Origin: a virus | Length of the DNA: 64,000 nt | Strand: one strand, 5' to 3' | Virus record (IMG/VR): IMGVR_UViG_3300015371_000011 | Coordinates: 17,480-81,479 of that record | In this document: positions 4,636-26,530 of the stretch, one piece after another | Position numbering within the stretch: position 1 is the first letter of the stretch | Layout: the number at the start of each line of letters is the position of its first letter | Position numbers and translations under genes: made by a program | The notes under the pieces: generated by a model | The model's input: the letters and a program-made list of their open reading frames with translations, nothing else | Told to the model about the DNA's origin: nothing | The model's database searches: none

Positions 4636-7107
4636 TTACCAATCCGGCCGTAGCCGCTCGCCTACCATGAATATGGCCTTAGTGTTTATTGGCGGCACGC
4701 CAGTCAGCTCGTTGAAGGCGCCCGTGCAGGCGTCTACGATGTCGTCATGGCCGCCGCCTGGAAATAACTGAAACTCATCCAGCGCGTCTTTATTCCAGTG
4801 CGCAGCGAGCATATGGACATTGCCCGCTTCCGCCTGTGACGCTAGTGCGTTGGCTCTGATCTCTTTCGGCCCTGTCACCTTATCACCCTTGAAATCGTAG
4901 CCGGCGAGAAATGACGTATAGTCCGCAATCACCTTAACGCCGCTGTTATGGACAGCAAAATCTTTAACGGTAAAACTATGGCCACCGTCCACCGTTAAAC
5001 ATCGACACGGAAGCGTTTCTCCCTGTTTAACGATTTCAATGATCGGATCGGCTATATGATTCTCAAAAAATCGCTCCCTAGTTTGTGCATGATCCAATAG
5101 CAATCCAGCCTTCTTGCCGTAAACAGGGATTTGTTCGCAGAATCGAGCCTGCCCATCATTGCTCTTTCGTATTTCTAAGCGGTACATCGTCTGACGACGT
5201 TCTCTAAATTGTTTGTCTCGATAAACCCGCTCTCGAATCACAGATGGAATCCCAAATCTCAACAACAAATGACGGACACCGTGAAGCAATGCATAGCTTG
5301 TCCCATAAAACTCAATGCTCAGCCCATTGCCATAATAAATTGAGCCATCGGTAGCGAAATATGCTCCTAAAAAATGCGCTACTAAATCATTCGGCGCATT
5401 GAACACCCATTGCGGGACGACCTTTGTTTCTGTGCGCTTGCCAGCTAAGTCTACATTGCGCAACCAATCACGCACTCCACCTGATAACTTGCAATGCCAA
5501 TGTTGTGAGCCAGCCCATCTTGTTTTAAACCCAAGCACTTCAGCACAATGATTTATGTCTTCTTTAAGAATCATATCTGAGCAGGTAATCATCGCGTGAA
5601 TAGATGAGCCGTCAGCTACATAAGTGCAGCATCCGTCGCCAACAAAATATCCAGCTAAGCGAAACTCCTCGGCGATACGAGATGATACACCCTGAATTTC
5701 TGGCCGTGACGTTAATCCAAGACTCTGTCCGACTTTTAACAATCCCGCTTTGATCCAGCCGGTTGGCGTAAGAAATGGATGCTCCAATGCTGCCGTCACC
5801 GAGCGACCACTTTCTGTCTTAATGGTGACAACAGTTAATTCGCCCTGTTCATGCACTTTGGAGACAATTCGCCTCTGACCGTACCCATCAATGATAGAAT
5901 CATTAACGCGAATTTCTTTTAACGGCTTGATTGAGCCGTCCGCCATTAAAACTTCCTCTTCTTCCCAAATAGGCGAACCCGGTTCTTGCTCCATGCGGAT
6001 AGCCACATTACCGTAATTCTGTCGGTCAGTCTGCGCCGTCTGCATAATGAGTTGATCGACTTTATGCGGGCTGATTCTTTGGCGCTGAATGTCGGCTATG
6101 AAATACTCCCTGCCATACTGGCCCACAAGCGCACCCACGGTATAGTCAGGGTCGTTACCTTCTTTCGGCTCCGTTGCGGCACAATCCCAATACCGTACGA
6201 ATCGCACGCCTTGGACGGGCAGCACCTGCGCAATCTTAAACCAATGGCGCATAAACTTACCCGCCGCCTGTGCCTCCCAGTCGCCATTCATCACTTGCGC
6301 ACGCAGTATCGGGTCAAGGTGGCTCAGGCTGGATTCATACTCTGCAACATTAGCGGTGGGATTGTCGCGGATGCTGGCGGGAATAAATACTGGCGCGTTA
6401 GGATCGCCACGACGGTACGGATCAACGAAATGCTCTTTGGTCCACAGCCGTCCTTCGCCTATTGGGTTTGATGCCGAGCGCACACGGAGCGGTAGCGGAT
6501 TGCCTTCGCTTTTACGTAGCCAACCAAACGGGAATTCATATTGCTGCTTTTTGAACTGAGTAACCTCATCAAACGCTACGTATGTCCAGTTGACGCCCGT
6601 ATACTGATATTTGTCTCTATCAGTATCCATAAAACCAAACGTCACCGTGGCACCACTGGGAAACTCATAGCGATTCTTTTCATCTTTCCACTTGGCGTCG
6701 GTATCGCTCAGCCACTTATGTGCAAGGTCCAGTATGGCTTCAGGCTTATTTAACTCCTTGAATGTGCGCCGAATGATAAGCGCGTTGTAATTCGGCTGGT
6801 CAGCAAACTGTAACGCAGCCGCGAGCAGCGCCCAGCTTTTGCCCCCGAATCCTGCCCCGCCATAGAAGGCTTCCTTACAATCGAGCTTTAGAAACTCTTC
6901 CTGCTTAGGAAACGGCGTCATCTTGATGTACTTATTCAACCGCGGCTTCAGTTGGCCATCTGCCGTCAATATGCACGTCGGCGGGATGAGCGGCAGCCAT
7001 GGCTCTAGCACCGCCTTCTTGGCATCCTCTGCGCTCTTGAAGCGTGCAGCAAAGTCGCGGCTTACTGCGGCCCAGTCTATTTGCTCAGCGGTCAAACCCA
7101 TGCGCAC
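4636..7107 (-). CDS. terL: terminase large subunit with intein
   Basis: Walker A YGGAGFGGKS, Walker B VAFDEVTQF, coupling motif SASNP, nuclease RYWDCAAT...DYTVG and HDDIVDA; likely ATG at 7101. Confidence 0.95.
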   Translation of the reverse strand: MRMGLTAEQIDWAAVSRDFAARFKSAEDAKKAVLEPWLPLIPPTCILTADGQLKPRLNKYIKMTPFPKQEEFLKLDCKEAFYGGAGFGGKSWALLAAALQFADQPNYNALIIRRTFKELNKPEAILDLAHKWLSDTDAKWKDEKNRYEFPSGATVTFGFMDTDRDKYQYTGVNWTYVAFDEVTQFKKQQYEFPFGWLRKSEGNPLPLRVRSASNPIGEGRLWTKEHFVDPYRRGDPNAPVFIPASIRDNPTANVAEYESSLSHLDPILRAQVMNGDWEAQAAGKFMRHWFKIAQVLPVQGVRFVRYWDCAATEPKEGNDPDYTVGALVGQYGREYFIADIQRQRISPHKVDQLIMQTAQTDRQNYGNVAIRMEQEPGSPIWEEEEVLMADGSIKPLKEIRVNDSIIDGYGQRRIVSKVHEQGELTVVTIKTESGRSVTAALEHPFLTPTGWIKAGLLKVGQSLGLTSRPEIQGVSSRIAEEFRLAGYFVGDGCCTYVADGSSIHAMITCSDMILKEDINHCAEVLGFKTRWAGSQHWHCKLSGGVRDWLRNVDLAGKRTETKVVPQWVFNAPNDLVAHFLGAYFATDGSIYYGNGLSIEFYGTSYALLHGVRHLLLRFGIPSVIRERVYRDKQFRERRQTMYRLEIRKSNDGQARFCEQIPVYGKKAGLLLDHAQTRERFFENHIADPIIEIVKQGETLPCRCLTVDGGHSFTVKDFAVHNSGVKVIADYTSFLAGYDFKGDKVTGPKEIRANALASQAEAGNVHMLAAHWNKDALDEFQLFPGGGHDDIVDACTGAFNELTGVPPINTKAIFMVGERLRPDW
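4945..5973 (-). mobile_element. 343-aa intein with LAGLIDADG endonuclease in TerL (Pro1, class-3-like)
   Basis: Removal restores EQEPGS|SGVKV; starts PIWEEEEVLMADG, ends PCRCLTVDGGHSFTVKDFAVHN; LAGYFVGDG and FLGAYFATDG motifs. Confidence 0.9.
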
Positions 7108-12703: not shown

Positions 12704-13582
12704 TCATTCCCATGCCCCCCACGGCGACGGCGTGCGCACCGATTCACGCCCCTCTCGTATTGCCGCTATGCGCTCCACAAACATGCGGTGGTTATCCTCG
12801 GCGCTTCGCTGCCACGGCTTGACAATCGAGTGCGCCAACCGCGGCAGGCCATAAACGCCAATCTTGTAGTTGCACGTCGGCAACAAGCAAAATTTCCAAC
12901 CTACCATCTCCGCCCTGATACCAATATGAATATCCTGTGACGCATAGCCGCCGTCAAATCTCTCATCCCAGCCATTGATTTCCTTCAGCACGGCTAGCGG
13001 TATCGAATCATTAAGGCTCGCATACCATTTATCGCCCGGCATGCGAAACATTTCAGTCTCGCCTATGCGCTCGCCCTGCATGCCGCCTTTGCGCTCGCGA
13101 TAAACAGGCTCGACACAATCAAAGTAATGCCGCGCACGCTCGGCGGTAAACTCATCGGTAAACGACGTCCACCAGACATCTTCAATCTCTTTCGAGTCAT
13201 TCATCGCCGGCCACGGATAGCGGTCCAAATAACCGCTGGCCGAGTAACCAGACAGATTCTTGTAGATATTCCAATGATCACGCAGGTAATACGGGTAGGC
13301 CCAGATATAATCGTTGAGAAAACAAATCAGCTCGCCCTCGGCATGGCGCAGGCCAGTATTCCAGCCTGCACAGTGGTCTATGTAATCGTGTGGCGTTGGC
13401 GGGACGTGCCTAAATGCAGGAATGAAATAATCATCTACAAACCTTTTGCGCGCTTCATGCCATTCATCGACATAAATCACTTCGAACTGTGGCGCATCTA
13501 CCTGTGCTTTCATCGAATTGATAAGCATGTCCAAGCCGCCGAGCGAGATTGTGGTGGTGATGACAGAGATGCTCATTGCCAA
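12704..13582 (-). CDS. GT2-family (GT-A) glycosyltransferase
   Basis: ISVIT, EVIYVD, NTGLRHAEGELICFLND, INGWDERFDGGYASQD. Confidence 0.85.
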   Translation of the reverse strand: MAMSISVITTTISLGGLDMLINSMKAQVDAPQFEVIYVDEWHEARKRFVDDYFIPAFRHVPPTPHDYIDHCAGWNTGLRHAEGELICFLNDYIWAYPYYLRDHWNIYKNLSGYSASGYLDRYPWPAMNDSKEIEDVWWTSFTDEFTAERARHYFDCVEPVYRERKGGMQGERIGETEMFRMPGDKWYASLNDSIPLAVLKEINGWDERFDGGYASQDIHIGIRAEMVGWKFCLLPTCNYKIGVYGLPRLAHSIVKPWQRSAEDNHRMFVERIAAIREGRESVRTPSPWGAWE

Positions 13583-14544
13583 TCTTCGCCTAGATAATCC
13601 TTGATGCGCTTCACCACGCCATCAACGGTAAGTCCGTACTTTTTGTGCGCCTCGTCCCTACCCCACGGCTCAAAGTGATACACGTCAGGTATGCCGACGC
13701 GCAGTAACGAATTAAGGTTGTCGGCATCATGCAGGACTTCGCTCACAATCGAGCCAAGGCCACCGCTCAAGAAATGTTCTTCTAGTGTGATGATATTTTT
13801 CTGGCCTACGTGCGCTAGAAATTCATCTTTATCAAAAGGCCATACCCGCGCCACATCGACTACGCCAAATTCTAATTTCTCCTTTAGAAAAAATTCGCTC
13901 ACCTTCAATGCCGTGTGCGTCATGATGCCTGACGAGACGATCCATGCATCACACTCGGACTTGCGCCAATTAGGATACAAAAACGTCAACGGCTTAAAGT
14001 CGTATTCGTCGGCCTTGTAGATATTCGGTATGCCTGCCCGATCAAATCTAATATATTTCGGCGTTAGCCGCTCATAGCTGAGTTTCGCCAATGCAGCGCC
14101 ACAGACTGAATCGGCTGGCGAGTATATCTCCAAGCCACAGCATGTGCGCATGATCGAAATGTCGTCCGCCGTATGATGCGACGGACCCATCTCCGCATAA
14201 GCATAGCCTGCACCCACACCAAGAATCGTAATAGGCAATTTCGAAGCACACACATCTAGCTTCACAAACTCATGGACATGACTGGTCGCAAACGGGGCGA
14301 TGCAGTACGTCCATACGCGTTTGCCTTCCTGCGCTAATCCAGATGCCATACCAATCATGTTTTGCTCGGCTATGCCTACCTGAATAAACTGGCGTGGCGT
14401 CTGCTCGACAAACTGATCGAGACTCGGTGCGCCATTGTCGGCGGTTATCAGAATGCAATTCGAGTCAGCTTTGAAAATATCGAATAGCGCATTGAAAAAG
14501 GCGTCGCGCTGGCCAATGATTCGCGGCGTTGCTTCGTAGCTCAT
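13573..14544 (-). CDS. transketolase C-terminal (pyrimidine-binding) subunit
   Basis: GIAEQNMIGMASGLA, GPSHH...D, YIRF, TLEEHFLSGGLGS. Confidence 0.92.
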   Translation of the reverse strand: MSYEATPRIIGQRDAFFNALFDIFKADSNCILITADNGAPSLDQFVEQTPRQFIQVGIAEQNMIGMASGLAQEGKRVWTYCIAPFATSHVHEFVKLDVCASKLPITILGVGAGYAYAEMGPSHHTADDISIMRTCCGLEIYSPADSVCGAALAKLSYERLTPKYIRFDRAGIPNIYKADEYDFKPLTFLYPNWRKSECDAWIVSSGIMTHTALKVSEFFLKEKLEFGVVDVARVWPFDKDEFLAHVGQKNIITLEEHFLSGGLGSIVSEVLHDADNLNSLLRVGIPDVYHFEPWGRDEAHKKYGLTVDGVVKRIKDYLGEDWQ

Positions 14545-15407
14545 TCCATGCCCAACTCTTTCTTGCTTTGCTCTAAGTCCGCGCCTAGGGGCGCTCTATA
14601 ATGCCAGAGCCGCACATCTTGCATTACGCTTGCCCCGTGGCCCTTGTCCGTATGCGCGATAACGCATAGCGGTTTGGTAATCAACGGCCAGTCACGAAAG
14701 CCTTCTAGCGACTTGAATATATCGTTGAAGTCATGCCCGTCACATTCTCTAATCTCACACCCAAATGCCGCTAGCTTATTTGCCAACGGGTCAAGGCCAG
14801 GCCCATCGGACGCATAGAGCAATTCATCGTGCATACCGATTGTCGCTTGCTTGTTGTTATCTACAATCAGAATCAGGTGGCCATACGCCCCTACCGCCGA
14901 CGACTCGTTGTATCGTCCACCCGCCGTGAATAGCGCCTCCCAATTGCTGCCCTCGTAAAGCTCGCCGTCACCGAGCAAGCAAAATATGAAATGCTTTTTG
15001 TTGGCAAGCCGTGCGGCGTGCGCCATGCCCAGGGCTATCGGCAAGCCATGCCCTAGCGATCCTGTCAGGACTTCAATCCCAGGCACGTTGTATTCAGCAT
15101 GCACGCCGAGAATGCCACCAGGGGATGCGAAGCGGTCTATCTCTTCTTCGCTGAAAAAACCCAAATCGGCTAGGATTGGATATAAGCCGAGTCCACCCTG
15201 CCCCTTTGAGAGAATGAATCTGTCACGCCCATCCCATTTCGGATTCTTCGGGTCTACGTTTAGAAGCCCACCGTAATAGAGCGCCACGGTCAACTCCATT
15301 TGCGAGAAGGCCGTGCTCACATGGCCCGACTCTTTTCTAACCGCCATCTCCAAAACCTGGCGCCGCATCTGGAGCGCCTTGCCTGCCAGAAACTCAACAT
15401 CAATCAC
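14541..15407 (-). CDS. transketolase N-terminal (TPP-binding) subunit
   Basis: RDRFILSKG, TGSLGHGL, GDGELYEGSNWEA...DNN, DGHD, HTDKGHG. Confidence 0.92.
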   Translation of the reverse strand: MIDVEFLAGKALQMRRQVLEMAVRKESGHVSTAFSQMELTVALYYGGLLNVDPKNPKWDGRDRFILSKGQGGLGLYPILADLGFFSEEEIDRFASPGGILGVHAEYNVPGIEVLTGSLGHGLPIALGMAHAARLANKKHFIFCLLGDGELYEGSNWEALFTAGGRYNESSAVGAYGHLILIVDNNKQATIGMHDELLYASDGPGLDPLANKLAAFGCEIRECDGHDFNDIFKSLEGFRDWPLITKPLCVIAHTDKGHGASVMQDVRLWHYRAPLGADLEQSKKELGME

Positions 15408-16344
15408 GATTCACCGCCTTTAATTCATCCACCAGCCATTCAAGGCTTTCAGTCAAACCAATCTTTGCCGTCCAGCCCGTCTCGATGCAAAACTTATCGC
15501 AATCGGGCACTGCGTAGAAAACATCCGTCGGCCGGCGCAGCGTCTCTTTCTCGTGCCACTCGGCATACACGGGCACAATGCGCCTTAGCTCGTCGGCTAT
15601 GCGCTGGATGCTGCACGGCTCCTCGCTACCGATATTGTAAACGCCCGGCCCGCATTTCGTGGCCGCGAGATAGTACGCCTTCACAATATCCCTCACATCA
15701 CAAAACGTACGCACGGGCGACAAATCGCCATGCTCAATCACATCCGTGTCGCCGCGTGAGAACTGCACGAGCTGATAGGCTAGCGACGTAGCCACCAGGT
15801 CGGGACGGCGCGGATTGATATAACCAAAGGCGCGCGTAATCACCAGCGGGAATCCTGCCATCATCGAATAGCAATTGGCGTAGTGCTCCTGACACGATTT
15901 CGTCACCGCATACGGGCTGCACGGATTGTGCGGCTGCTCTTCACGAATCGGGTTTTCTATCTGCGGCACATTGCCGTAAATCTCGGATGATGACGCCAAC
16001 ACTACCTTCGGCTTTAACCCGCTTTCGGCTATGGCGTGAAAGAGGTTAAGAGTACCGCCGACATTATTGGCTAGAAACAATTCAGGCTCAGCGAAACACC
16101 GCTTCACGTTGGCAATACCCGCCAAATGAATAATCACTTCGGGATTAGCGTTTTTTAAAGCACGAGCAATCTTTTCATTATCCGTTGCTAGATTTATTGG
16201 ATGTGAATAAACGTCAAGATACTTCGCCACTTCACCAGCTACAGGCTTGCGGCCGATGCCATACACCGTCTCGCCTGCCTCTTTTAGAAACTTGGCCTGA
16301 TAGTAGCCAACCGCGCCCGTGGCGCCGACGATAAGAAACCTCAC
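15400..16344 (-). CDS. NDP-sugar SDR, GDP-mannose 4,6-dehydratase / 4-keto-6-deoxy reductase family
   Basis: GATGAVG, IHLAG, SSSEIYG, SPYAVTK, GDLSPVRTFCDVRD. Confidence 0.85.
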   Translation of the reverse strand: MRFLIVGATGAVGYYQAKFLKEAGETVYGIGRKPVAGEVAKYLDVYSHPINLATDNEKIARALKNANPEVIIHLAGIANVKRCFAEPELFLANNVGGTLNLFHAIAESGLKPKVVLASSSEIYGNVPQIENPIREEQPHNPCSPYAVTKSCQEHYANCYSMMAGFPLVITRAFGYINPRRPDLVATSLAYQLVQFSRGDTDVIEHGDLSPVRTFCDVRDIVKAYYLAATKCGPGVYNIGSEEPCSIQRIADELRRIVPVYAEWHEKETLRRPTDVFYAVPDCDKFCIETGWTAKIGLTESLEWLVDELKAVNRD

Positions 16345-17312
16345 TTGCGCGCCACTCCCTGATTCTTTCTATACCAATCCACCGTCAACTTGAGTCCGTG
16401 ATGCAGGCTGGTGCGCGCCTCGAATCCCATATCACGCTTTGCCTTGCTCACGTCGAAACACCGCCGCGCCTGCCCGTTAGGCATGGTGTGGTCCCATGTA
16501 ATGCGGCCCTTAAAGCCTGTGATTTTCGCCAGCATCTTCACCACTTCGGCTATACTGTGCTCCTTGCCGCTCGATAGATTCACAATCTGCGGCTCGTCAT
16601 AGACTTCGGCAGCTTTCAATATCCCTTCGCAGACATCAGGCGCATAAATAAAATCGCGCGTAGCCGTGCCGTGGCCCCATAGGCTTAATACATCGGCGTT
16701 ATTGTCCACAGCCTCAACGAATCGACGCACCAATGCGGGTATGACGTGGCCCTGCTCCAGGTTAAACCAGTCGTGCGGCCCTTACAGATTGCCAGGTATC
16801 ACCACCACGCTAGGCAGACCGTACTGCGTATAAACGGCCTTGGCCTGCACGATTTGCATCCTTTTGGCTAACGAATACGGCGCGCTCTCTGGCTGCGGCA
16901 AGCCATTCCAGTAATCCTCTTCTTTGGTCGGTATAGGCGCATGCTCAGGATAGCCGCAGCCCGCCGATACTAGCACGGCTTTCTTGATGCCGTAGTCGTG
17001 CGCGTAATAGAGCAGGTGGGCGCTCATGGTCAGATTATCGTAAAAGAAATCCGCTGGCCGCTGCATGTTAGCGTTGATGCCGCCTACCAGGCCCGCCATG
17101 TGCACGAGCACCGTCGGCACCCGCTTAGTGTGGTGGTTGATATACAATTCTTCAACCTGATTCGCGTCTCTCAAGTCGTAAGCCTCGTGGCTAGGCCCAA
17201 CGATATACGCTTTGCGGTGCAGGCAGCGCATGGTGCGCTGAAAGTTTCTTCCAAGAAACCCTGCGGACCCTGTTAATAAAGTTTGGTGCTCGTCCCAGTT
17301 AAACATGGCCAC
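16341..17312 (-). pseudogene. fcl: GDP-L-fucose synthase-like reductase with in-frame TAA at 16782-16784
   Basis: VGGINAN..PADF, YSLAKR, then IPGNL*GPHDWFNLEQGHVIPALVRR continues in frame to WGHGTATRDFIY; TAA stands where the Tyr of NLYGP is expected. Confidence 0.85.
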
Positions 17313-17347
17313 CTAACCGAAACGGCGCGCCTTCGACGCCGACGCGC

Positions 17348-17536
17348 CTAGCCTCGGTGAATTTTCTCGGCTTCCTCCTTTGTGTTTATTTTCTTCTCTG
17401 ACACACCCGACATCTGAGCGCGTAGCCAATTGTCGTAGACTTCAAGCAGCATCACCTCGACGCCATTCGGCCATATCCCCTTTTGCGCACAGTGCTCCAG
17501 AAAGGCTTGCAGGCGGTCGCTAAAGCGTTGGCTCAT
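17348..17536 (-). CDS. hypothetical protein
   Basis: 62 aa, in operon. Confidence 0.45.
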   Translation of the reverse strand: MSQRFSDRLQAFLEHCAQKGIWPNGVEVMLLEVYDNWLRAQMSGVSEKKINTKEEAEKIHRG

Positions 17537-17538
17537 GA

Positions 17539-17916
17539 TTAAAACCTCTTGCCGCCTGCAAAGTTTAAAGGGATTTTGTGCTTAACGCTTTTCCATGCAA
17601 CCAAGCGGTCGGGTGCCCATGAGTACCAGATATAAACTTCAAGAATGTTATTCTGCTCAAGCAAGTCGAAAGTCCGCGCCTGATTCGGAGAAACGCTATC
17701 GTTTGGTCCTTTGACTTCAACGCCAATCGTCTTGCCGTTAAACCGCACTAAAAAATCAGGCCAGCTAGGACGATGGACCACCGTCCAATTATGGATATGC
17801 GCACGCTTGACAAAATCTTGCTCAGCAGGCACTAGCCGTTCAGGTATAACTTTAAAATTCTTTGCCTTTTTGATTTCCTTAGCGATGAATTTTCGCAAGC
17901 TAGGACTCAGGCTCAT
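17539..17916 (-). CDS. VRR-NUC-like PD-(D/E)XK nuclease
   Basis: WPDF...VEVKGPNDSVSPNQ. Confidence 0.75.
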   Translation of the reverse strand: MSLSPSLRKFIAKEIKKAKNFKVIPERLVPAEQDFVKRAHIHNWTVVHRPSWPDFLVRFNGKTIGVEVKGPNDSVSPNQARTFDLLEQNNILEVYIWYSWAPDRLVAWKSVKHKIPLNFAGGKRF

Positions 17917-18149
17917 TGATTCTCTCCGTTCTTAACAAGCCGCCCCATTACGCGATGAAACTCAAGACTCCACTTGCCATATTCTTTTACCCGCGAATAA
18001 ACCTCGTCCGCTAGTTTCTCGGCACGCGGTATTAGGCTATTGCGCCAGTCGATATAGTCACAGTTATGGACGTGCAAATCATTGCGCAGAACGGGTTGAC
18101 CGTTGCGATATTCAATCTTGCCCTCGGCACAGCTACAAAACACAGTCAT
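17913..18149 (-). CDS. hypothetical protein
   Basis: 78 aa, coupled. Confidence 0.5.
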   Translation of the reverse strand: MTVFCSCAEGKIEYRNGQPVLRNDLHVHNCDYIDWRNSLIPRAEKLADEVYSRVKEYGKWSLEFHRVMGRLVKNGENQ

Positions 18150-19134
18150 TGGTAATAGCTTTCTCCGTCATCACAATCCTTGTCCCCTCTTTATGCACAT
18201 CCCAGCGGTTAAACCGCATGCCATAGTGAAAATGATCGACATACGGTATCTCGTATTGCGGCGGCGACTCCACGCGTATCGACAGGCCAGCCGTGTACTG
18301 ATCCTTGATCATAGCCCGTATCCCGCTGTTGTCGCCCACGTATGGCGGGCCGTAATCGCCGTCAGCCAGAATGAATGCCATATCGCGCCTATCGGCATCG
18401 TCAAACTTGACGCTGCGCTCATTGAGCACCTTATAGCCCGCCGCCTTTAATAGCGTGGACATCGACTCCCACGTAAAATTGCACTTATGCGCGAAATAGA
18501 AGGCGTCGCTCCAGTTTATAATTTGAAACGCGTGCGGCACCTCTAGGTAAACAATACCCTTCGGCTTCAGTATGGACTTCAAGCCGCGCATGACGGCGAG
18601 CGGGTCGCGGCAATGCTCTAGGACGTGCGACATGACGACTAGGTTGAAATCCAGCAGCCGCTCTTCACATAACTGCTCGATAGTTGTGCCATCGCCCATC
18701 GGCTCCACGCCGCACACGTCCAGATAGCCCGCCTCCTTAAACGCGTCCACGCCCTCATAGCTAGCCGCGCCAACGTCAAGAATATGGGCATTATGCTTCA
18801 CGTATGGTGCCACCATCTCGGCGCGTTTACGGTAGGCGGCAAACCTAGCCGCGCTATACGGCCGCTTATACGGCGGCTGCAATTCGGCCATGCGGGTAAA
18901 CCAATCGTCGGTAGGCGATAACGCGCGCCAGCTAAACGTGCATTGCTTGCAAATCACCGTCTGGTGCACGCATAAACGGCCGATATAGACACTTGCCGCC
19001 TCATCGAAGGCACTCACACCGCATATCGCGCACGAGCCGCGAAACACCAAATCGGCGTGCGCAATCGGATAGCGCGTTACTGGCTCGGCGGCGATGGCGG
19101 CTAAGCGGGCATCTTTGAAGTCGTGGGTTAACAT
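18133..19134 (-). CDS. class I SAM methyltransferase with N-terminal Zn ribbon (sugar-MTase-like)
   Basis: CAIC...CKQC, ILDVGA, MSHVLEH..DP, LKPKGIVYLEVP. Confidence 0.85.
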   Translation of the reverse strand: MLTHDFKDARLAAIAAEPVTRYPIAHADLVFRGSCAICGVSAFDEAASVYIGRLCVHQTVICKQCTFSWRALSPTDDWFTRMAELQPPYKRPYSAARFAAYRKRAEMVAPYVKHNAHILDVGAASYEGVDAFKEAGYLDVCGVEPMGDGTTIEQLCEERLLDFNLVVMSHVLEHCRDPLAVMRGLKSILKPKGIVYLEVPHAFQIINWSDAFYFAHKCNFTWESMSTLLKAAGYKVLNERSVKFDDADRRDMAFILADGDYGPPYVGDNSGIRAMIKDQYTAGLSIRVESPPQYEIPYVDHFHYGMRFNRWDVHKEGTRIVMTEKAITNDCVL

Positions 19135-19264
19135 TTTTTCATATACACGAATCGGCTGGCCTTGGAGCAGTAGCCTTTATAGCCGCGCTTGGTCATAAAA
19201 CTTCTATCCACACGGCGGCGCATATCACGCCTGATTATCTCGCCGCACTTTGGACACAATAACT

Positions 19265-20248
19265 TCACGCCAACCCCGCAATCCGAAACATGCCCTTCCA
19301 GAATTGCCGCCCGTCAAATATCTCTTTGGCCTTTTTCGCGCCTGCCTCGGCTATCCTTGCCGCCTCATTTTGCCCTGGCCCTAAATAGTATTTGAGTCTA
19401 TCCACCAGCGTTGATGCGCCCTCGAAGCCAATGGCACCATTAGCCAGCAAGTGAAACGGCTCGCTGAATTTTACGTAATGCTTGAATTCATCTAATAGGC
19501 GCGGCGTCTCGTCGTTCGCGCTCTCCATCAACATTGCGCCGCATAAAGTCGCCTCAGACGTCCTGCCATTTAGGTGCTGAAACGTGACGGCACTGGTGAA
19601 ATTTAGCGTAATCTTGGATCGGCGCAGCAACCACGCATAGGCGTCGATGCTATCCACTTTCTGCCCGACGATGCCGCCGCCGCGAGTCACGGCTATGCCC
19701 ATACCATCAAGCCAGCCGAGATTGAGCGCACGGTCGAGACGGCCCGACGTACTGCCGATAAAGCTCAGCGGTATGTCGCGCTCGCCAAACGGCGCAGAAT
19801 AGAATATGCGCGGGTCTTTCGGCTCAGGCAGCCAAAACGTCTTGTCGGCAAACGACGTGAATTGTTTCCAGTGCTCGGCGGTATCGACAAACACATTGGC
19901 CGTGACGTGTGGCGCATACATATCGGCGTGCAGCACCACATTCGGCGCGCTCTCTAGCCACAGGCCAATGACGGGTATCTTGTAGCGGTCGCGCAGAAAG
20001 CGAAACAACTCAGGCTCGATATTGCCCGCAAAATTCACTAGCGGCGTTGCCACAATCAAGTCTGGATTCCAACCGCTGGCATACGCGGCCAGCGCCTTGT
20101 GGCCGTCCTCACTCACGTCAAACCAGTAGCGCTTAATATCAAATCCCAGCGCCTCGGCTGCACCGATTGAGCAATACTCGTGCGGTGATTGGCGTAAGTC
20201 GCTCTCATAGCCGTGCATCGTTTTGTGCGTGGCGAATAGGATTTTCAT
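19265..20248 (-). CDS. GT-B glycosyltransferase (CgeB / Glyco_trans_1_2-like)
   Basis: LSFIGS...R, RSKITLNF...GRTSEATLCGAML...IAEAG; ATGA-coupled start MKILF at 20248. Confidence 0.8.
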   Translation of the reverse strand: MKILFATHKTMHGYESDLRQSPHEYCSIGAAEALGFDIKRYWFDVSEDGHKALAAYASGWNPDLIVATPLVNFAGNIEPELFRFLRDRYKIPVIGLWLESAPNVVLHADMYAPHVTANVFVDTAEHWKQFTSFADKTFWLPEPKDPRIFYSAPFGERDIPLSFIGSTSGRLDRALNLGWLDGMGIAVTRGGGIVGQKVDSIDAYAWLLRRSKITLNFTSAVTFQHLNGRTSEATLCGAMLMESANDETPRLLDEFKHYVKFSEPFHLLANGAIGFEGASTLVDRLKYYLGPGQNEAARIAEAGAKKAKEIFDGRQFWKGMFRIAGLA

Positions 20249-20895
20249 GCGAATTTTAGGACTTCTTGCGCCATGCGTTTGGCAGCTATCTCGCAATATT
20301 TCTCTTCTATCTCGATACCAATAGCCTTGCGGCCCAAGTCCTTAGCGGCTCGCAATGTGGTTCCGCTGCCCATGAAGGGGTCAAGAATGGTTTCATCCTG
20401 CTGACAATAATTCGTCAAACACCAATTCATCAATTTTAATGGCTTCTGCGTCGGATGGTCTCGTAGTGTCTCTTTGCCTAACAAACCATTCCATTCAATT
20501 GTTATTTTTTTTACAGACTTACGATTGAATGAAGTCCAAGCTAATTCACAATCGCCAAAAGTTGGCATGGTGTTTAATTTATCCCAACTAATCCAATGGG
20601 TAGAGCGTGGCAACAAATCAGCAAAAAAATTACCGCCCCAAATAATAGCGTTTGATGCCATGTCTAAAATCATCAAAAAAATCTCTTGGCTAGGCCGTTC
20701 TGCGTCCCACGCATCAATGTACTGGCGTCGCCTAATAGGCGTGCCAAAGCCGCCAAAGCCGTCAAAGCCGTGTGACATACTCACACCATACGGCGGATCA
20801 GTCAGCACTAAATCCACCGGCTCAAGCTGCAGCAGTATTTCTCTACAATCCCCATGAAATATCGTCACCGCATCGTCCTGGTAATAGGGTTTCAT
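20245..20895 (-). CDS. N6/N4 DNA methyltransferase
   Basis: TDPPYG, HPTQKP, DPFMGSGTT. Confidence 0.92.
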   Translation of the reverse strand: MKPYYQDDAVTIFHGDCREILLQLEPVDLVLTDPPYGVSMSHGFDGFGGFGTPIRRRQYIDAWDAERPSQEIFLMILDMASNAIIWGGNFFADLLPRSTHWISWDKLNTMPTFGDCELAWTSFNRKSVKKITIEWNGLLGKETLRDHPTQKPLKLMNWCLTNYCQQDETILDPFMGSGTTLRAAKDLGRKAIGIEIEEKYCEIAAKRMAQEVLKFA

Positions 20896-23876
20896 AGCAA
20901 TAATATCTGCCCCGACTTGCGCCCGTAGAGCACGACTTCACGCGCAAACTTCTTCTTATCGCCGCCGTAATGCCACGGCGTGGGTATGCGCCACATCTGG
21001 TTTTCAATCACAGTGTCGTCGTACAGAAGCCCGCCCGTCTCGTCGTAGAATCCCGCCAAGTCATCGGCTGCCCTGAAAAATGTGGCCTCCTCTGGCCCCC
21101 AGTAAACCTCGCCGTACTCAGGCATGAGCGCCGCTATCGGCTCGCCACGCTCAAGCACGCCGTCAAGAATCTTATTGTACTCGGCCATCTCGTTGCGCCA
21201 GAAAGCGCCGTTGCTGTACATAATCGCTTCGATGAATGTGCTCGGCATAATACCCTTGGTAAGCAAGTCCTGCAGGATAAAAATACCCAACTTTAGCCCG
21301 TGCAGCGCCATAAAAATCCATGAAAAAATATTCATGCGCCGCCACTTGACTATGTCCATACTGCTCGTCTCGACAACCAAATCCTCATACTCGGCCAGAT
21401 AACCATCGGCCCGTACCGTGCCGTGAATCTCGGCTAACTCTATACGCCGTGTGCGGATACCAAACTGCGCCTGATAGTCGGGCCGGCCCATCTCGGTATT
21501 AGGCAAGGCCATCAGCGGGTAGATAAACACCTGCCCACTCATGCCAGCCGCCACGATCTCGTCCAGCCCCTGCTTCCACGTCTCGTATGTCTCACCCGGC
21601 AGCCCGACAATAAATTCGCTATATGTCGGCACGCCTTCGGCGTTGAAACGCTCCTGCAGCTTCTCGTAGGTAGACATTTTGATATTGCTGCGCTTGATAT
21701 TCTGCAGCACCGTGGCGTTGTTGCTTTGGCGTGCGAGCGTGACGCTTTTAGACATGCCTGCGTCGGCTAGCATCTTGCCTACGGCGTAAACCTTGTCGTC
21801 GGTGTTCTTGCCGTAATTGACGCGAAACCGCTGCGGATAGCCGTATTTCTCTTTGGTGGCTATCAGGTACTCGGCTATTTCACGGTCGCGTGCGAGCATG
21901 CCAAAATTCGACGCGCTCCCAAGTGCATACGGGATTTTATTACGCCCCAACCATTCAATCTCCGCAAATACTCGGTCTAGTCCATAGTAGCTCATCTTGT
22001 GTTGCCCAAGTCCATATTCGCAGAATGAACAATTTTCACAGAGCAACCCGTTAGCAAAAAAATTATGATTCGGCGTAGCTTCAACAATATCATAAACTCG
22101 CCGATGCTCGCTTGGCGAAATCTCTTCTACTGCACACCAAGAAACCTTTGCAGTCGTTGCACCATCGCTTCGTTCAACTTGTCGTCGTTCCAAATCACAA
22201 AAATCTCCCAACCGAAATATTGATAATCTGCCGCTTCCATTTCCACGTCCTTTTCCTCTTGGTGCCAATAACGACCATGAGCGAGAATCGCTTTTCTTAC
22301 TCCCTTTTTGCAGTGGATAAAATCTGGATTGCGACAACCTCCCGATACTCCCGGCCCCAACCAAAATGTCCTGTCGCCAGTATATTTGAATGGCAGTTGA
22401 TACTGTTGAAAAAATTTTATCAGCTTGCTCTCGAAACCATTCGGCGGCTCGCCAGCCTTTAAAAAATGAGCGGCATGCCATTGCGGATCGTTCCAATATT
22501 GCCGCATCTTTTGCTTCCACGATTCGATCATTTGCTTGTGCTTGATTGGATCTAACCGTCGCATCGGATTGTTGTCGCCAGTTTGCCATGCGTAACCGAG
22601 CCTCTTGCTTGTTTCCACCCCTTTCCTCGCATGTGCTAGTCGTTGTTCTCGACTCATTCGCCGCATTGGACTGTTGTCGCCAGTGAATTTCAGGTAGTGC
22701 CCCATTGCTCGTTGCGTTGCTACCACCTTCGCTACGTGTTCTGGCGATTTCTTTATTCCCTTGTTCATACCCGGATGTCTGTAGAGACCCGCTGCTGCTG
22801 CCCTCTTTATCCCCTCTATTCGCCGCTCTTCGCCTCCGCTTTGCTTCCGACTTGCTGCAGCTTTGATTCCCCGGAGTCTTTGCACTTCCAACGGAGTCGT
22901 TAATACTCTCTGTCTCAAGTGCGGCAGATAGCACCCCATCGAACAATACATCCTCTCTTTTGGCCGATGATCTATCGACGTTCCACAACCCTTGCAAAAT
23001 CTTGTCGCCGACTTTAAGGTCGCCTGCTGTAACCCATCCCCTGTCGGTGTAAAAAGGATGATCTCTAGTTGCTCCAATTTCAGAACCTCCCGCTACTATC
23101 TTGATGGTTTCCTTAATGCCGCTACAAATCGAAAATGCGACTCTATTCCACGCAAGGCATTCGTCTTTCTCATTCCAACCTAAAATATAATCACCGGACT
23201 GCACTGCTTCTATATTTTTTTGCCCTGTTTGAGTAACTACCACCGTTCCTTCCGCGAGACACATAAATGGGCATCCGCGATCCTGCTCCAAGACGTAGCT
23301 ATACTCTATTGGCTCTGGATGCTGCTCCAATAACCCGTCAAATAAGCCGGTCAACGCGGGCGACGGCAATTCATTCAACTCTTTCTGAAACGGATAATCC
23401 TGAGCGCAGTAGTGCACATCATTGTCTCGATACGTTATCTGCGGGATACCTTCAAAGTCCGTGCTGTGAGTTTCCGCCCAACGCTTTAATACGGCAGTAA
23501 ACGCCTGCTCACCCGCGCGTCTGACAGCTACGTCGATAAATGGATGCTTGGATAAATACTCAATGGCGTTATCGGGCACCTGCAATCCACCAAACACAAT
23601 CAGGCACTCAGGCCAACGGCGTTTCACTTCGGCGGCTACTGCCAGGTTTAATTGCTCATTCCACACCGCCACAGAGAAAGCCGCCACGTCCACACGGTTG
23701 TCATAGTGCTTGAGAATATTGGCCGGCTTATCCACGCAGTAAAGAAAATCGCCAAACTCGTAATTGGCCTTGATGTCGTCATTCTGCTCGGCATAGGCGC
23801 GCAGCAATCCCGTAGCCAGCGGCAAGTAGCAGTTGCGGCCGAGCCTGATGTTATATTCGTTTAGGACTACGCGCAT
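20892..23876 (-). CDS. B12-binding radical SAM enzyme with intein
   Basis: YLPLATG, FSVAVWN, FGG..VP; RGCPFM|CSFC after splicing; NFGMLARD, GLPGET. Confidence 0.9.
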   Translation of the reverse strand: MRVVLNEYNIRLGRNCYLPLATGLLRAYAEQNDDIKANYEFGDFLYCVDKPANILKHYDNRVDVAAFSVAVWNEQLNLAVAAEVKRRWPECLIVFGGLQVPDNAIEYLSKHPFIDVAVRRAGEQAFTAVLKRWAETHSTDFEGIPQITYRDNDVHYCAQDYPFQKELNELPSPALTGLFDGLLEQHPEPIEYSYVLEQDRGCPFMCLAEGTVVVTQTGQKNIEAVQSGDYILGWNEKDECLAWNRVAFSICSGIKETIKIVAGGSEIGATRDHPFYTDRGWVTAGDLKVGDKILQGLWNVDRSSAKREDVLFDGVLSAALETESINDSVGSAKTPGNQSCSKSEAKRRRRAANRGDKEGSSSGSLQTSGYEQGNKEIARTRSEGGSNATSNGALPEIHWRQQSNAANESRTTTSTCEERGGNKQEARLRMANWRQQSDATVRSNQAQANDRIVEAKDAAILERSAMACRSFFKGWRAAEWFREQADKIFSTVSTAIQIYWRQDILVGAGSIGRLSQSRFYPLQKGSKKSDSRSWSLLAPRGKGRGNGSGRLSIFRLGDFCDLERRQVERSDGATTAKVSWCAVEEISPSEHRRVYDIVEATPNHNFFANGLLCENCSFCEYGLGQHKMSYYGLDRVFAEIEWLGRNKIPYALGSASNFGMLARDREIAEYLIATKEKYGYPQRFRVNYGKNTDDKVYAVGKMLADAGMSKSVTLARQSNNATVLQNIKRSNIKMSTYEKLQERFNAEGVPTYSEFIVGLPGETYETWKQGLDEIVAAGMSGQVFIYPLMALPNTEMGRPDYQAQFGIRTRRIELAEIHGTVRADGYLAEYEDLVVETSSMDIVKWRRMNIFSWIFMALHGLKLGIFILQDLLTKGIMPSTFIEAIMYSNGAFWRNEMAEYNKILDGVLERGEPIAALMPEYGEVYWGPEEATFFRAADDLAGFYDETGGLLYDDTVIENQMWRIPTPWHYGGDKKKFAREVVLYGRKSGQILLL
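22032..23261 (-). mobile_element. 410-aa intein inserted in the radical SAM CxxxCxxC motif
   Basis: starts CLAEGTVV, block B ATRDHPF, DLKVGD, ends VYDIVEATPNHNFFANGLLCEN followed by +1 Cys. Confidence 0.9.
22127..23077 (-). CDS. nested +1-frame endonuclease (Zn finger + NUMOD3-like repeats + Vsr/DUF559-like nuclease)
   Basis: CKGC...YCSMGC; NKGIKKSPEHVAK, GDNSPM, GDNNPM; PNGFE...PDF...HGRYWH...GWEIFVIW; GGAGGT (23085-23090) 7 nt before TTG start. Confidence 0.85.
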   Translation of the reverse strand: MEQLEIILFTPTGDGLQQATLKSATRFCKGCGTSIDHRPKERMYCSMGCYLPHLRQRVLTTPLEVQRLRGIKAAASRKQSGGEERRIEGIKRAAAAGLYRHPGMNKGIKKSPEHVAKVVATQRAMGHYLKFTGDNSPMRRMSREQRLAHARKGVETSKRLGYAWQTGDNNPMRRLDPIKHKQMIESWKQKMRQYWNDPQWHAAHFLKAGEPPNGFESKLIKFFQQYQLPFKYTGDRTFWLGPGVSGGCRNPDFIHCKKGVRKAILAHGRYWHQEEKDVEMEAADYQYFGWEIFVIWNDDKLNEAMVQRLQRFLGVQ

Positions 23877-25372
23877 GACGACACACCCGTTATCATTGCA
23901 TCCATCTGTACTCGCACAATCCGCGACACAGGCTTGACCGCCTTCTTCAGCACTTCGAAAATATACCGCATGTGCTCTTCGTTAAGCCCAGGATGCACGC
24001 CAACGAAAAAGCCGCCATGCATGATTCTGTCCGTATTTGCCAAGGTGCCGTGCACACGGTGCGTAATGCCGCTAAACGCGGGTTGGCGTAGCAGGTTGCC
24101 CGCGAATATCGGCCGCGTCTCAATCTTAGCGGCCTCTAACGCCGCTATGATTTCACGCGTAGGCACGCCGCTGTTATTGATTAGCGGGTAAGCATACGGC
24201 GACGGGTCGGCGCGTGAATCCCACTTTGACAATATGAAATAGTCAGCCAACTCGGCGCGGCACATGGCGTGCAGCGTGTTGAAGTTTTCTTGCCGCTTGC
24301 CGATGATCGTGCCTAGTTTATCAAACTGAGCACACAGCACCGCCGCCTGCATATCGGTTGCCTGCATATTGTAGCCGATATTTGAATACTGATATTTGTG
24401 ATCGGTCCCTGGCGGCAATCCTGGCGTGTCCCATTCAAACCGCTTGCCGCAGGTATTTTCTTTGCCTGGCGCGCAGTAGCACGACCGACCCCATTGCGAG
24501 ATTGAGCGTGCTGCTATTTTCAATTTAGGGTTATTGACGATGACGCTGCCCGCCTCGCCGCAAGTCGTATGGTGCGCAGGGTAGTGGCTCAGAGATGCCA
24601 TGTCGCCGAAGGTGCCAGTCAGCATGCCGTCAAACCTAGAGCCTAGCGCATCGCAATTGTCCTCTAAGAACAACAAGCCATTCTTGGCACAGAAATATTT
24701 CACCGCGGCGCAATCAAACGGCAGGCCCATCGGGTGCGGTAGCATGACGGCGCGCGTCCTTGGCCCAACTGCACTAACAATGTCCGTGAATGTCGGGTTA
24801 TAGGTGCCAAGACCCACGTCCACGAATACAGGCACAAGCCGATTTTGAATAATCGGCGCTAGCGTAGTCGGGAATCCCGCCGCCACGGTTATAACTTCAT
24901 CGCCATCCTGCAGCGGCCTAAGTCCGTATTGCGCAATGTCCTTGCTGCATACCGTGGCAAGCATGAGCAGGTTGGCCGATGAGCCGCTATTGACGAGCAA
25001 GACGTCGCGCGCGCCAAAATACTTGATCATGGACGTCTCGAATTGCTCCGTCCACTTGCCCGCCGTCATCCATTGCGACAATGCCACGTCTATCAGGTTG
25101 AGCGTTTCCTGTTCGTCAAAGAAATGCTTGCTGTAGTGGATCTTTGTCTGGCCTGGGATGAAGTCCTGCGGCGTGTGCAACGCCTGCACGAATTTCTTAG
25201 CCAAGTCCCAGATCAACTCAACGGTGGCGTCCATTATCGCCGCCCGCCCATGACCTTGCTCATTTACCAACCTCATTGAGCCATTCGGTCGCTTTTTCGA
25301 GCACGGTGAGGAATCCACCTTCATAAACTCGGTCGCCATATTTAACGGTGCAGGACGGTGATAGATCAGCAA
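23867..25372 (-). CDS. rfbH: CDP-4-keto-6-deoxyglucose 3-dehydrase (RfbH/DdhC); probable start 25234
   Basis: NSGSSANL, EDNCDALGS, SHYPAHHTTCGEAG (His at the usual Lys position), 2Fe-2S motif WGRSCYC...NTC, DHKY, GYN. Confidence 0.92.
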   Translation of the reverse strand: MLIYHRPAPLNMATEFMKVDSSPCSKKRPNGSMRLVNEQGHGRAAIMDATVELIWDLAKKFVQALHTPQDFIPGQTKIHYSKHFFDEQETLNLIDVALSQWMTAGKWTEQFETSMIKYFGARDVLLVNSGSSANLLMLATVCSKDIAQYGLRPLQDGDEVITVAAGFPTTLAPIIQNRLVPVFVDVGLGTYNPTFTDIVSAVGPRTRAVMLPHPMGLPFDCAAVKYFCAKNGLLFLEDNCDALGSRFDGMLTGTFGDMASLSHYPAHHTTCGEAGSVIVNNPKLKIAARSISQWGRSCYCAPGKENTCGKRFEWDTPGLPPGTDHKYQYSNIGYNMQATDMQAAVLCAQFDKLGTIIGKRQENFNTLHAMCRAELADYFILSKWDSRADPSPYAYPLINNSGVPTREIIAALEAAKIETRPIFAGNLLRQPAFSGITHRVHGTLANTDRIMHGGFFVGVHPGLNEEHMRYIFEVLKKAVKPVSRIVRVQMDAMITGVSSCA

Positions 25373-25502
25373 ATGTGCGCACCGTTATATTCACCGCTAA
25401 CGGCCATTTATAACCCTTACCCGAAAGTGCGCTGTCAGATTGCCGTGTCGTCACAACACATAGCGCCGCCAAGAATTCATCGACAACCTTACTCATTTTC
25501 AA
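25260..25502 (-). CDS. hypothetical protein
   Basis: 80 aa between epimerase and rfbH. Confidence 0.45.
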   Translation of the reverse strand: MKMSKVVDEFLAALCVVTTRQSDSALSGKGYKWPLAVNITVRTFADLSPSCTVKYGDRVYEGGFLTVLEKATEWLNEVGK

Positions 25503-26530
25503 TCCTTCTCATTACAATAATACTCGTACGTCCGTCGCAGCCCATCATCCAGCGACACGGCTGGCGGCGGCGCTAACTTCAATATCTTGCTGGTATCGGG
25601 CCGCCTGCGGCTCGGCGCATCGCTTAACCGCTCCTGATTGTCCACATGCTTCATTTCGAGTTTCGGGAATAGCGCCTGCGCCGTCCAGCCAAAGGCGTTG
25701 ATCGACACCTCGCTATTGCCGTCGCCCACGTTATAGGCTTCACCATTCTCACCGTCGAGCAGCACGGCCATGAATTGCAGCACGGCATCGCTGATATAAA
25801 CGAATGAGCGCGTAGCACGGCCGTCGCCGTAAATGGTTAGCGGCGTCTCCGTCATTAGCGCCTGCATGAGCTGAGGCACTAGGCGACCATCGTCTACGGC
25901 TTCGCCCGGCCCGTAGATATTAAACGGTCGCACCACCTTTACGGGCACGCCATGCATCTTGTGGTAAATCTGGCATAGTGTCTCGCTTAACCGCTTGCTT
26001 TCGTCATACGGGCTTGATGGCCCCGTAAACGAGCAATTGCCCCAATACGTTTCTGGCGTGGGTATAAACAGCGCAAACGGATCGCCGTAAACCTGCACGC
26101 TTGAAAAATGCAGCACCGCCTTGGAGCGTGACTCCAGCGCCAACCCCAGAATCACCTTAGTCAAGTCCACGTTAGCTTCAATCGTCTCTAACGGCTTTTC
26201 TAAGTACATTTTGGCCGACGCTATGGACGCTAGGTGAATGTAATAATCGGCCCCCGCCGCGCCCATATAGGCCAGCGGCGCCTCACACTGGAGCAGCTTG
26301 ACGTCCGTACCCCGCACGACGCGACTAGGGGCAATCATCGTGTCATAGCCCGTAACCTTGACGGACTTCTTGAAATATGTCTCGTTGGCGTAGGCAACCA
26401 GGCCCATCAGGTAGCTGCCGACAAACCCCGCGGCGCCAGTAATAAATACCTTGGCCCCCGCTAAATCCTTGAAAGTAGGCGTGATGGCATCGAGGATGCT
26501 GTCATAGTCGGATTGTAAGACGGGATTCAT
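25499..26530 (-). CDS. NAD-dependent epimerase/dehydratase, UDP-glucuronate decarboxylase-like
   Basis: TGAAGFVG, HLASIAS, PTPETYWGN..GP..YDESKR.SET, FNIYGP, YGDGRATRSF. Confidence 0.85.
   Translation of the reverse strand: MNPVLQSDYDSILDAITPTFKDLAGAKVFITGAAGFVGSYLMGLVAYANETYFKKSVKVTGYDTMIAPSRVVRGTDVKLLQCEAPLAYMGAAGADYYIHLASIASAKMYLEKPLETIEANVDLTKVILGLALESRSKAVLHFSSVQVYGDPFALFIPTPETYWGNCSFTGPSSPYDESKRLSETLCQIYHKMHGVPVKVVRPFNIYGPGEAVDDGRLVPQLMQALMTETPLTIYGDGRATRSFVYISDAVLQFMAVLLDGENGEAYNVGDGNSEVSINAFGWTAQALFPKLEMKHVDNQERLSDAPSRRRPDTSKILKLAPPPAVSLDDGLRRTYEYYCNEKD

Follow-up and report, generated by a model that had tools for sequence, protein, structure and literature searches.

A putative homing endonuclease encoded in the +1 frame of an intein that interrupts the Fe-S motif of a phage radical SAM enzyme

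Introduction

Can one and the same stretch of phage DNA serve as the middle of an intein and, read one base later, as a gene for a complete homing endonuclease? The question is raised by a gene of soil phage origin, located within the window—i.e. the whole stretch of 64,000 nucleotides analysed, from the IMG/VR record IMGVR_UViG_3300015371_000011—in which a B12-binding enzyme of the radical SAM type is interrupted by an intein. The present study considers the host protein and its intein, the protein encoded in the +1 frame, the selection acting on both frames, the recurrence of the layout and the way in which the nuclease may be translated. The features are collected in Table 1.

Results

Table 1 Features of the intein-containing locus (positions within the window)
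Feature	Position	Strand	Evidence
Host gene, B12-binding radical SAM methyltransferase (KedN5-like) precursor, intein included; 994 aa	20892..23876	minus	ORF list
N-extein, residues 1-205, ending RGCPFM	23262..23876	minus	ORF and intein boundary comparison
Intein, 410 aa, Cys1 (CLAEGT) to LLCEN, precursor residues 206-615	22032..23261	minus	Pfam Intein_splicing, intein-less homologues, alignment
N-terminal splicing domain, intein residues 1-98, block B T65/H68	22968..23261	minus	Alignment A3
Intein-frame linker, open, Ser/Arg/Ala/Gly-rich, domainless	22146..22967	minus	Stop counts, pLDDT, conservation
C-terminal splicing domain, intein residues 373-410, blocks F and G, terminal Asn, penultimate Glu	22032..22145	minus	Alignment A3
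C-extein, starting CSFCEYGLGQ (Cys+1 = second cluster cysteine)	20892..22031	minus	ORF, intein-less homologues
Shine-Dalgarno GGAGGT, within intein Gly-Gly codons	23085..23090	minus	Sequence; spacer of 7 nt to nuclease TTG
Putative homing endonuclease gene, +1 frame, 316 aa, TTG start, TAG stop	22127..23077	minus	ORF list, family relatives, profile, predicted fold
Putative zinc finger CxxC...CxxxC, nuclease residues 29-49	22931..22993	minus	Cys columns conserved (alignment A2); weak zinc-ribbon profile matches
Two NUMOD3-like repeats, GDNSPMRR and GDNNPMRR, nuclease residues 133-175	22553..22681	minus	Alignment with NNPM motif of relatives
Predicted Vsr-like/EDxHD-type catalytic domain, nuclease residues 209-316 (E216, D252, H272, E281, D284)	22130..22453	minus	Profile and predicted fold

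The host protein is encoded by a single 994-aa ORF that spans the nuclease gene, the host gene not being broken in two in the manner of fractured genes. Its closest family is the NCBIfam KedN5 (NF033712; E 2.8e-69), and since the score of 234 bits does not reach the curated cut-off of 700, the gene should be named KedN5-like at most. The Pfam B12-binding and Radical_SAM matches to the complete ORF are weak, because the intein interrupts the domain. The complete phage genome holds the gene within a sugar-modification operon. The majority of the 327 homologues of the host protein are intein-less; at the site of insertion these have the sequence CxxxCSFCEYGLGQHK (e.g. P0003), so that the +1 Cys corresponds to the second cluster cysteine. 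A close intein-less allele of the phage gene was not found, the nearest one being 54% identical.

The limits of the intein were placed by comparison with these intein-less homologues, and its blocks A, B, F and G were aligned with four relatives. The first-pass annotation, made from the sequence alone, had located a 410-aa intein at CPFM/CSFC with the second 4Fe-4S cysteine as the +1 nucleophile, and both the coordinates and the intein-less homologues agree with that reading. The Pfam Intein_splicing model (PF14890) matches precursor residues 222–614, covering both halves, and its score of 37.0 bits exceeds the cut-off of 35.8. The features of a class 1 intein are present, namely Cys1, T65 and H68 in block B—the latter invariant in the five aligned inteins—as well as the C-terminal Asn followed by Cys+1 (LLCEN and CSFC); W375 is also invariant among the aligned inteins (alignment A3). 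The model of the N-terminal splicing domain has pLDDT values of 62–81 across most of residues 1–90. The intein does end in CEN instead of HN, as first noticed, i.e. the penultimate His of block G is replaced by Glu409, against an HN ending in the four relatives, and the Asn cyclisation could be slower for it. The penultimate His is not universal among inteins, the corresponding position being occupied by Lys or Ser in P0010, P0059, P0015 and P0114.

It should be pointed out that this replacement favours seeing the locus as a decaying relic, in which the intein or the nuclease would be inactive and the open frames would reflect recent history only. The same reading draws on one relative, P0101, a degenerate 184-aa mini-intein that has lost the nuclease, and on the fact that a close empty allele was not seen. 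What speaks against it comes from the nuclease itself and from the selection on both frames.

Concerning the +1 frame, the 316-aa protein has 1609 database relatives at E ≤ 1e-3, the closest of them exhibiting 42–49% identity within the matched parts. HMM searches were made for both frames. For the nuclease, single-sequence searches (phmmer against PDB, Pfam and NCBIfam) gave no usable match and PHROGs just a weak HNH match; the Vsr-like assignment needed the profile of the family, together with the predicted fold. The family profile matched, among the PDB structures, 3r3p (I-Bth0305I; E 5.9e-5), 1cw0 (4.3e-4) and 1vsr (6.9e-4). The AF2 model of the catalytic domain (pLDDT 85–98) had 1vsr, 1cw0 and 3r3p as its top three Foldseek matches with probabilities of 0.98–1.00, but with E-values from 6e-3 to 4e-2, i.e. 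above the 1e-3 line of the tool. The 24 family members show no variation at E216, D252 and H272 and hardly any at E281 and D284, and the PDF and HG-YWH motifs align with PDFvv and HGcFWH of Vsr; every invariant residue of the family is retained in the 316-aa protein (alignment A2). Of the zinc finger, NUMOD3-like repeats and Vsr/DUF559-type nuclease originally proposed, the cysteine columns are conserved and the Vsr-like domain is upheld by profile and predicted fold, whereas a Pfam search of the protein itself yielded no NUMOD3 (PF07460), Vsr (PF03852) or DUF559 match; the NUMOD3 label is drawn solely from the relatives, 6 of 24 of which match this family (best E 1.7e-19), and weak Vsr matches were found in 5 of 24. 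Judging from sequence and modelled fold, the +1 frame represents a genuine and widely represented nuclease family.

The intein frame has 0 stops over the nuclease, whereas 20,000 synonymous-codon permutations averaged 14.4 and never had fewer than 5, and a T-ending codon never precedes an at-risk codon in the overlap (0/84 vs 61/231 elsewhere); the third frame contains 22 stops. The linker has a pLDDT of about 25–35, which is weak evidence of disorder since the model was built on 5 sequences. In all 10 pairs of loci, the pairwise conservation is 87–231 bits in the nuclease frame versus 19–76 bits in the intein frame. The middle of the intein, described from the beginning as an open and domainless Ser/Arg-rich text, thus appears from sequence and model to be kept open yet poorly conserved, with a predicted lack of structure. 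The stop codon of the nuclease (22129–22127) falls at intein residues 376–378, i.e. at the onset of the C-terminal splicing domain, in accordance with the first description. At the level of sequence, dual coding is established: the host frame is under selection against stops, the nuclease frame is under selection for its amino acids, and the layout is conserved among relatives.

That stops are avoided at 84 of 84 risk sites, and that amino acids are conserved between sequences of just 30–35% identity, implies long-term selection on both products. Together with the retention of all invariant residues of the nuclease family and of the gene itself in the sugar-modification operon of a complete phage genome, this makes a decaying relic an unlikely reading.

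The same arrangement is seen in L014–L017, four further radical SAM genes of viruses, which carry the intein at Cys1 or Cys3 of the motif and the nuclease in the same +1 frame, their host frames being likewise stop-free over the nuclease and free of T-ending codons at the risk sites. Free-standing relatives of the nuclease (L003–L013 and L018–L021) have other frames full of stops. Two proteins, P0138 and P0181, contain the B12 domain, the N-intein and the nuclease in one frame, the frame layout of these—as well as of P0001, P0002, P0015 and P0114—having been deduced from the protein sequence alone. The metagenome scans and the viral scans with P0015 and P0138 as queries revealed no close relative, the genome scan gave none apart from one weak Pacearchaeota match, and tblastn against GenBank phages gave no match. 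The support in the tree of splicing domains is too weak to order events, so that only its pairwise identities were used.

The recurrence also bears on the supposition that two compensating indels, introduced by assembly or sequencing, displaced an endonuclease domain originally in frame with the intein. The coverage of the runs is low (3–5x) and the best-matching run is possibly the source of the assembly, but contigs from four runs, one of them of a different year and study, show 0 differences and 0 gaps over both junctions, the same frame relation is seen in four diverged viral contigs, and an artefact would not strip all stops from the shifted frame. Because the contigs of four sequencing runs match without indels, the layout is not an assembly artefact; this supposition, to which next to no probability can be given, is effectively refuted.

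With regard to translation, the GGAGGT had been noticed 7 nt before the TTG within intein codons, and it does lie there. Its anti-SD duplex energy is −11.0 kcal/mol, values of ≤ −9 occurring at 0.2% of random window positions and the median for the ORFs of this phage with at least 200 aa being −3.8; part of it could be incidental, since the same letters are the Gly-Gly codons of the intein. Plausible SD and start sites precede the nuclease also in L014–L017. The RNA around the ribosome-binding site folds no better than shuffles (z = 0.02), and a sigma-70 promoter scan found sites no commoner than in shuffled sequence, with none 5′ of the nuclease start; no RNA run is among the sequencing runs listed for the stretch.

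Alternatively, ribosomes translating the host frame could enter the nuclease by a programmed +1 frameshift, resulting in a fusion of N-extein, N-intein and nuclease. An SD-like element, as in prfB, can stimulate +1 shifts, and one is present here; moreover, the +1 relation is identical in all five loci, and the single-frame arrangement of P0138 and P0181 resembles such a fusion. The spacing of 7 nt is, however, ideal for initiation, and stops of the nuclease frame are found just 5′ of the SD-preceded start, about 0–5 codons before it, in the window and L015–L017 (in the window two TAG codons, 5–6 codons 5′ of the TTG). The host frame contains neither a stop nor a rare codon for ribosome stalling, and no shared slippery motif was seen, the frameshift being thus very improbable. 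As far as the sequence permits this to be judged, the nuclease most likely arises by separate initiation at GGAGGT-N7-TTG.

Discussion

Based on these observations, the locus is very probably a mobile intein whose homing endonuclease has a gene of its own, overprinted in frame +1. Frame openness, the nuclease family, recurrence in four loci and indel-free contigs are all consistent with the dual-coding selfish element of the first-pass annotation. The phage methyltransferase would be synthesised as the 994-aa precursor, from which the class 1 intein (Cys1, T65/H68 in block B, C-terminal Asn and Cys+1) must leave for CPFM-CSFC to be restored, the binding of the 4Fe-4S cluster presumably being possible only afterwards. 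Between the splicing halves, the host frame would be a stop-free unstructured linker, and the same DNA one base later would yield the 316-aa enzyme with its putative zinc finger, NUMOD3-like DNA-binding repeats and Vsr-like (EDxHD-type) nuclease. This enzyme would cleave intein-less alleles near the DNA coding for CxxxCxxC, after which the intein would be copied in by repair. The steps that we infer are the separate initiation, the splicing and the cleavage or homing.

It may further be suggested, rather tentatively, that one intein-plus-nuclease unit moved, across several radical SAM families, among all three cysteine codons of CxxxCxxC and one further site, and that it is the contiguous missing link in the model of Dassa et al. 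(2009) of a free-standing Vsr-like gene settling in an intein, the host frame having been purged of stops instead of splitting. Recognition of the conserved DNA of the Fe-S motif by the nuclease, if true, would explain hopping between paralogous genes.

The locus adds a well-supported case to the few inteins with the endonuclease as a separate overlapping gene, and both its nuclease family (Vsr-like/EDxHD, same strand, +1) and the class of its host enzyme differ from earlier cases. Such elements form a clade aimed at catalytic Fe-S cysteines in radical SAM enzymes, and the 84/84 stop avoidance is a clean signature of selection solely for an open frame. Elements of this kind are probably under-annotated, because gene callers report either the precursor or the nuclease, never both. 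The compact intein and the possible rare-cutting nuclease are offered for testing.

Out-of-frame intein nucleases as such have already been published (Gorbalenya 1998, as cited by later authors; Gosselin 2025; Phillips 2026), so that the novelty first suggested for the host gene and site holds relative to the literature searched and does not extend to the out-of-frame principle. Vsr-like nucleases are known from split and antisense intein layouts; the radical SAM inteins add a new form, with the Vsr-like nuclease in the +1 frame of the same strand. The actinobacteriophage reports mentioned at first pass are those of Gosselin, Arsenault & Gogarten (bioRxiv 10.1101/2025.01.02.630785), describing inteins with the endonuclease outside the intein frame, a structureless intein-frame middle and a nuclease whose presumed origin is a free-standing endonuclease gene that entered an intein. 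The present intein is likewise phage-borne, with the nuclease out of frame and a structureless middle predicted. Their Vsr-like nucleases are, however, antisense, and their sole same-strand out-of-frame case is endonuclease VII-like in frame 3, whereas the present Vsr-like nuclease shares the strand of the intein and occupies its +1 frame; their hosts, none of them a radical SAM gene, encode DNA polymerase, minor capsid protein, terminase and thymidylate synthase.

The cyanobacterial dnaX intein has an out-of-frame endonuclease too (Phillips, DeSimone & Gogarten, bioRxiv 10.64898/2026.09.14.751524), first proposed, according to that preprint, by Gorbalenya (1998). It shares with the present one the contiguous intein, the same-strand overlapping ORF with its own Shine-Dalgarno motif, the disordered overlap in the intein frame, here a predicted one, and a nuclease frame under the stronger selection. 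In dnaX, a +2 ORF within a bacterial chromosomal replication gene encodes a LAGLIDADG nuclease, in contrast to the Vsr-like nuclease with NUMOD3-like repeats in a phage Fe-S enzyme.

I-Bth0305I (PDB 3r3p) is the prototype EDxHD homing endonuclease, encoded by a group I intron within phage recA (Taylor et al. 2011, PMC3239194). Of the solved structures it gives the best profile match, and by fold it is one of the top matches; in both proteins, in the present one by prediction, a C-terminal Vsr-like domain follows N-terminal DNA-binding modules. The two are 13% identical in the structural alignment, and I-Bth0305I is intron-encoded, whereas the present nuclease, whose cleavage is putative from sequence and model, overlaps an intein.

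Finally, in fractured genes, found mainly in phages, the two halves of a split intein are separated by a free-standing gene for a Vsr-like endonuclease, its 3′ end overlapping the downstream intein part by 6–69 bp (Dassa et al. 2009, PMC2677866). The nuclease type—NUMOD3 repeats before a Vsr-like catalytic domain—and its place between the intein halves are common to both arrangements. There, the host is divided into two ORFs and splicing occurs in trans, whereas here the host frame continues uninterrupted across the 951-nt nuclease gene and the intein is therefore contiguous, a layout that connects contiguous inteins with the fractured-gene/split-intein arrangement.

The host enzyme and its intein

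The host ORF finds its best family among the KedN5-type B12 radical SAM C-methyltransferases (E 2.8e-69), with a score of 234 bits, under the family cut-off of 700. The Pfam intein splicing domain covers its residues 222-614 (37.0 bits; cut-off 35.8), the bounds of the intein being set by intein-less homologues, e.g. P0003 with CMYRCSFCEYGLGQHK. These homologues bear out the first-pass annotation in that the intein interrupts the CxxxCxxC cluster motif, and since it sits between CPFM and CSFC, the second cysteine is the +1 nucleophile. Four related inteins align with it at blocks A, B (T65, H68), F and G; all four end with HN, whereas the present one ends, as had been claimed, with CEN.

The intein/nuclease arrangement is not an artefact. 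The IMG/VR virus record (81,479 bp, direct terminal repeats), of which the window comprises bases 17480-81479, is estimated complete, and several rhizosphere metagenome runs contain near-identical sequence. Contigs from four runs map to 21900-23400 with 0 differences, 0 gaps and no compensating indels, one single contig covering 22043-23400.

Features of the intein-bearing locus and of the surrounding phage genome
Feature	Position	Strand	Details
Host ORF	20892..23876	-	994 aa
Intein	23261..22032	-	host ORF residues 206-615, between CPFM and CSFC
Nuclease ORF	23077..22127	-	316 aa, +1 frame
GGAGGT	23090-23085		7 nt 5' of TTG at 23077
Large terminase	4636-7107	-	823 aa, second intein of the phage
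Terminase intein	about 4945-5865	-	ordinary in-frame LAGLIDADG endonuclease (LAGYFVGDG, LGAYFATDG)
Sugar-nucleotide modification cluster	13573-26530	-	includes the radical SAM gene

The cluster also encodes split transketolase halves, two NDP-sugar epimerase/dehydratases, a SAM methyltransferase, a glycosyltransferase-like protein, a DegT-type aminotransferase and an N6/N4 DNA methylase; its product may be a C-methylated amino sugar. The terminase intein ends with VHN/S, no obvious Cys or Ser being seen at its N-terminal junction.

The nuclease in the +1 frame

The +1 frame is a real protein-coding one. The nuclease has two close relatives in a set of 5.8 billion proteins, and a representative set of 1.84 billion yields 1609 at E<=1e-3, of which 97 reach E<=1e-10. 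The alignment of 24 family members exhibits a conserved C-terminal domain (PNxFE...LPFxFxGD...NPDFIH...AILAHGxYWH...ExxDY...GW), its profile matching the homing endonuclease I-Bth0305I (3r3p, 5.9e-5) and Vsr (1cw0 and 1vsr, 4-7e-4). The AlphaFold2 model (mean pLDDT 76.8; 85-98 in the conserved domain) has 1vsr, 1cw0 and 3r3p as its best Foldseek matches (probability 0.98-1.00, E 6e-3 to 4e-2). The coherent Vsr-type protein proposed earlier thus stands, its NUMOD3 part less so: NUMOD3 was found in 6/24 relatives only and not detected in the window nuclease itself, the repeats of which (GDNSPMRR and GDNNPMRR, preceded N-terminally by a putative CxxC...CxxxC zinc finger) align with the NNPM motif of relatives.

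The host frame is, as claimed, free of stops over the nuclease ORF, whereas 20,000 synonymous-codon permutations of the nuclease put 14.4 stops into it on average and at least 5 in every trial; 22 stops occur in the third frame. Of the 84 codons of the nuclease that begin with AA, AG or GA, not one has a codon ending in T before it (other codons, 61/231). Ser, Arg, Ala and Gly abound in the text of the intein frame, the model of which has a pLDDT of about 25-35 (shallow alignment). Both frames are maintained, for differing reasons.

The anti-Shine-Dalgarno duplex at the GGAGGT, found at the spacing reported before, amounts to -11.0 kcal/mol; -9 is attained at just 0.2% of random positions, the median for the phage's own long ORFs being -3.8. 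Two TAG codons lie in the nuclease frame 5-6 codons upstream of the TTG, and two related viral loci (L015 and L017) have a TTG with a Shine-Dalgarno sequence and a stop codon immediately before. Over its first ~37 codons, the nuclease ORF shares its DNA with the N-terminal splicing domain, block B included, and its stop codon lies, as described earlier, where the C-terminal domain has its first strand. From these signals we infer that the nuclease would be translated separately.

Conservation and variation of the layout

The overprinted layout is conserved. In the nearest four IMG/VR relatives (L014-L017), a long ORF always has the nuclease in its +1 frame, all of these ORFs encoding intein-containing radical SAM proteins with 0 host-frame stops each versus 9.7-15.2 expected; the intein precedes Cys3 of the cluster motif in L014 and L017, and Cys1 in L015 and L016. 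In the shared DNA of five loci, the nuclease frame scores 87-231 bits versus 19-76 bits for the intein frame (10/10 pairs). In the more distant loci (L003-L013, L018-L021), the nuclease is free-standing, and stops interrupt the other frames all along.

Concerning database proteins, the inteins of P0015 and P0114 lie at a different site (FxAD/S) of the host enzyme family; their linkers are similar to the window linker (E 5e-15 and 6e-18), a likeness that is probably a shadow cast by the same nuclease. P0101 (837 aa), a host-enzyme relative, has a mini-intein at Cys3, whose short Arg/Gly-rich linker remnant suggests loss of an overprinted nuclease. The splicing domains of P0101, L014 and P0015 are 41-45% identical to the present ones, versus just 20-25% for P0010 and P0059, which share the insertion site of the window intein: P0010 (800 aa), another host-enzyme relative, has an unrelated 145-aa mini-intein, P0059 an intein with an in-frame LAGLIDADG.

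The closest nuclease homologues (P0001, P0123, P0124, P0125, P0127 and P0130) possess an N-terminal (T/I)Px..DG stretch; because this is the +1-frame reading of block B (DHxxxT..GW), they are probably overprinted on inteins, too. In the B12 radical SAM proteins P0138 and P0181, the N-half of an intein at Cys2 continues in frame into a nuclease of this family, the ORFs stopping just past it; these may be split (fractured) forms or have the frame shifted at the C-terminal junction only.

Comparison with known intein endonucleases

The literature search found neither a same-strand out-of-frame Vsr-like intein endonuclease nor an out-of-frame endonuclease in a radical SAM intein. Split inteins with Vsr-like/NUMOD3 endonuclease genes between their halves have been described (Dassa et al. 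2009, PMC2677866), as has a +2-frame LAGLIDADG enzyme in a dnaX intein (Phillips et al. 2026, bioRxiv 10.64898/2026.09.14.751524, crediting Gorbalenya 1998). The reports from actinobacteriophages to which the first-pass annotation refers do exist, covering antisense Vsr-like and LAGLIDADG intein endonucleases and a frame-3 endonuclease VII-like enzyme (Gosselin et al. 2025, bioRxiv 10.1101/2025.01.02.630785); as a class, out-of-frame and antisense intein endonucleases are already known.
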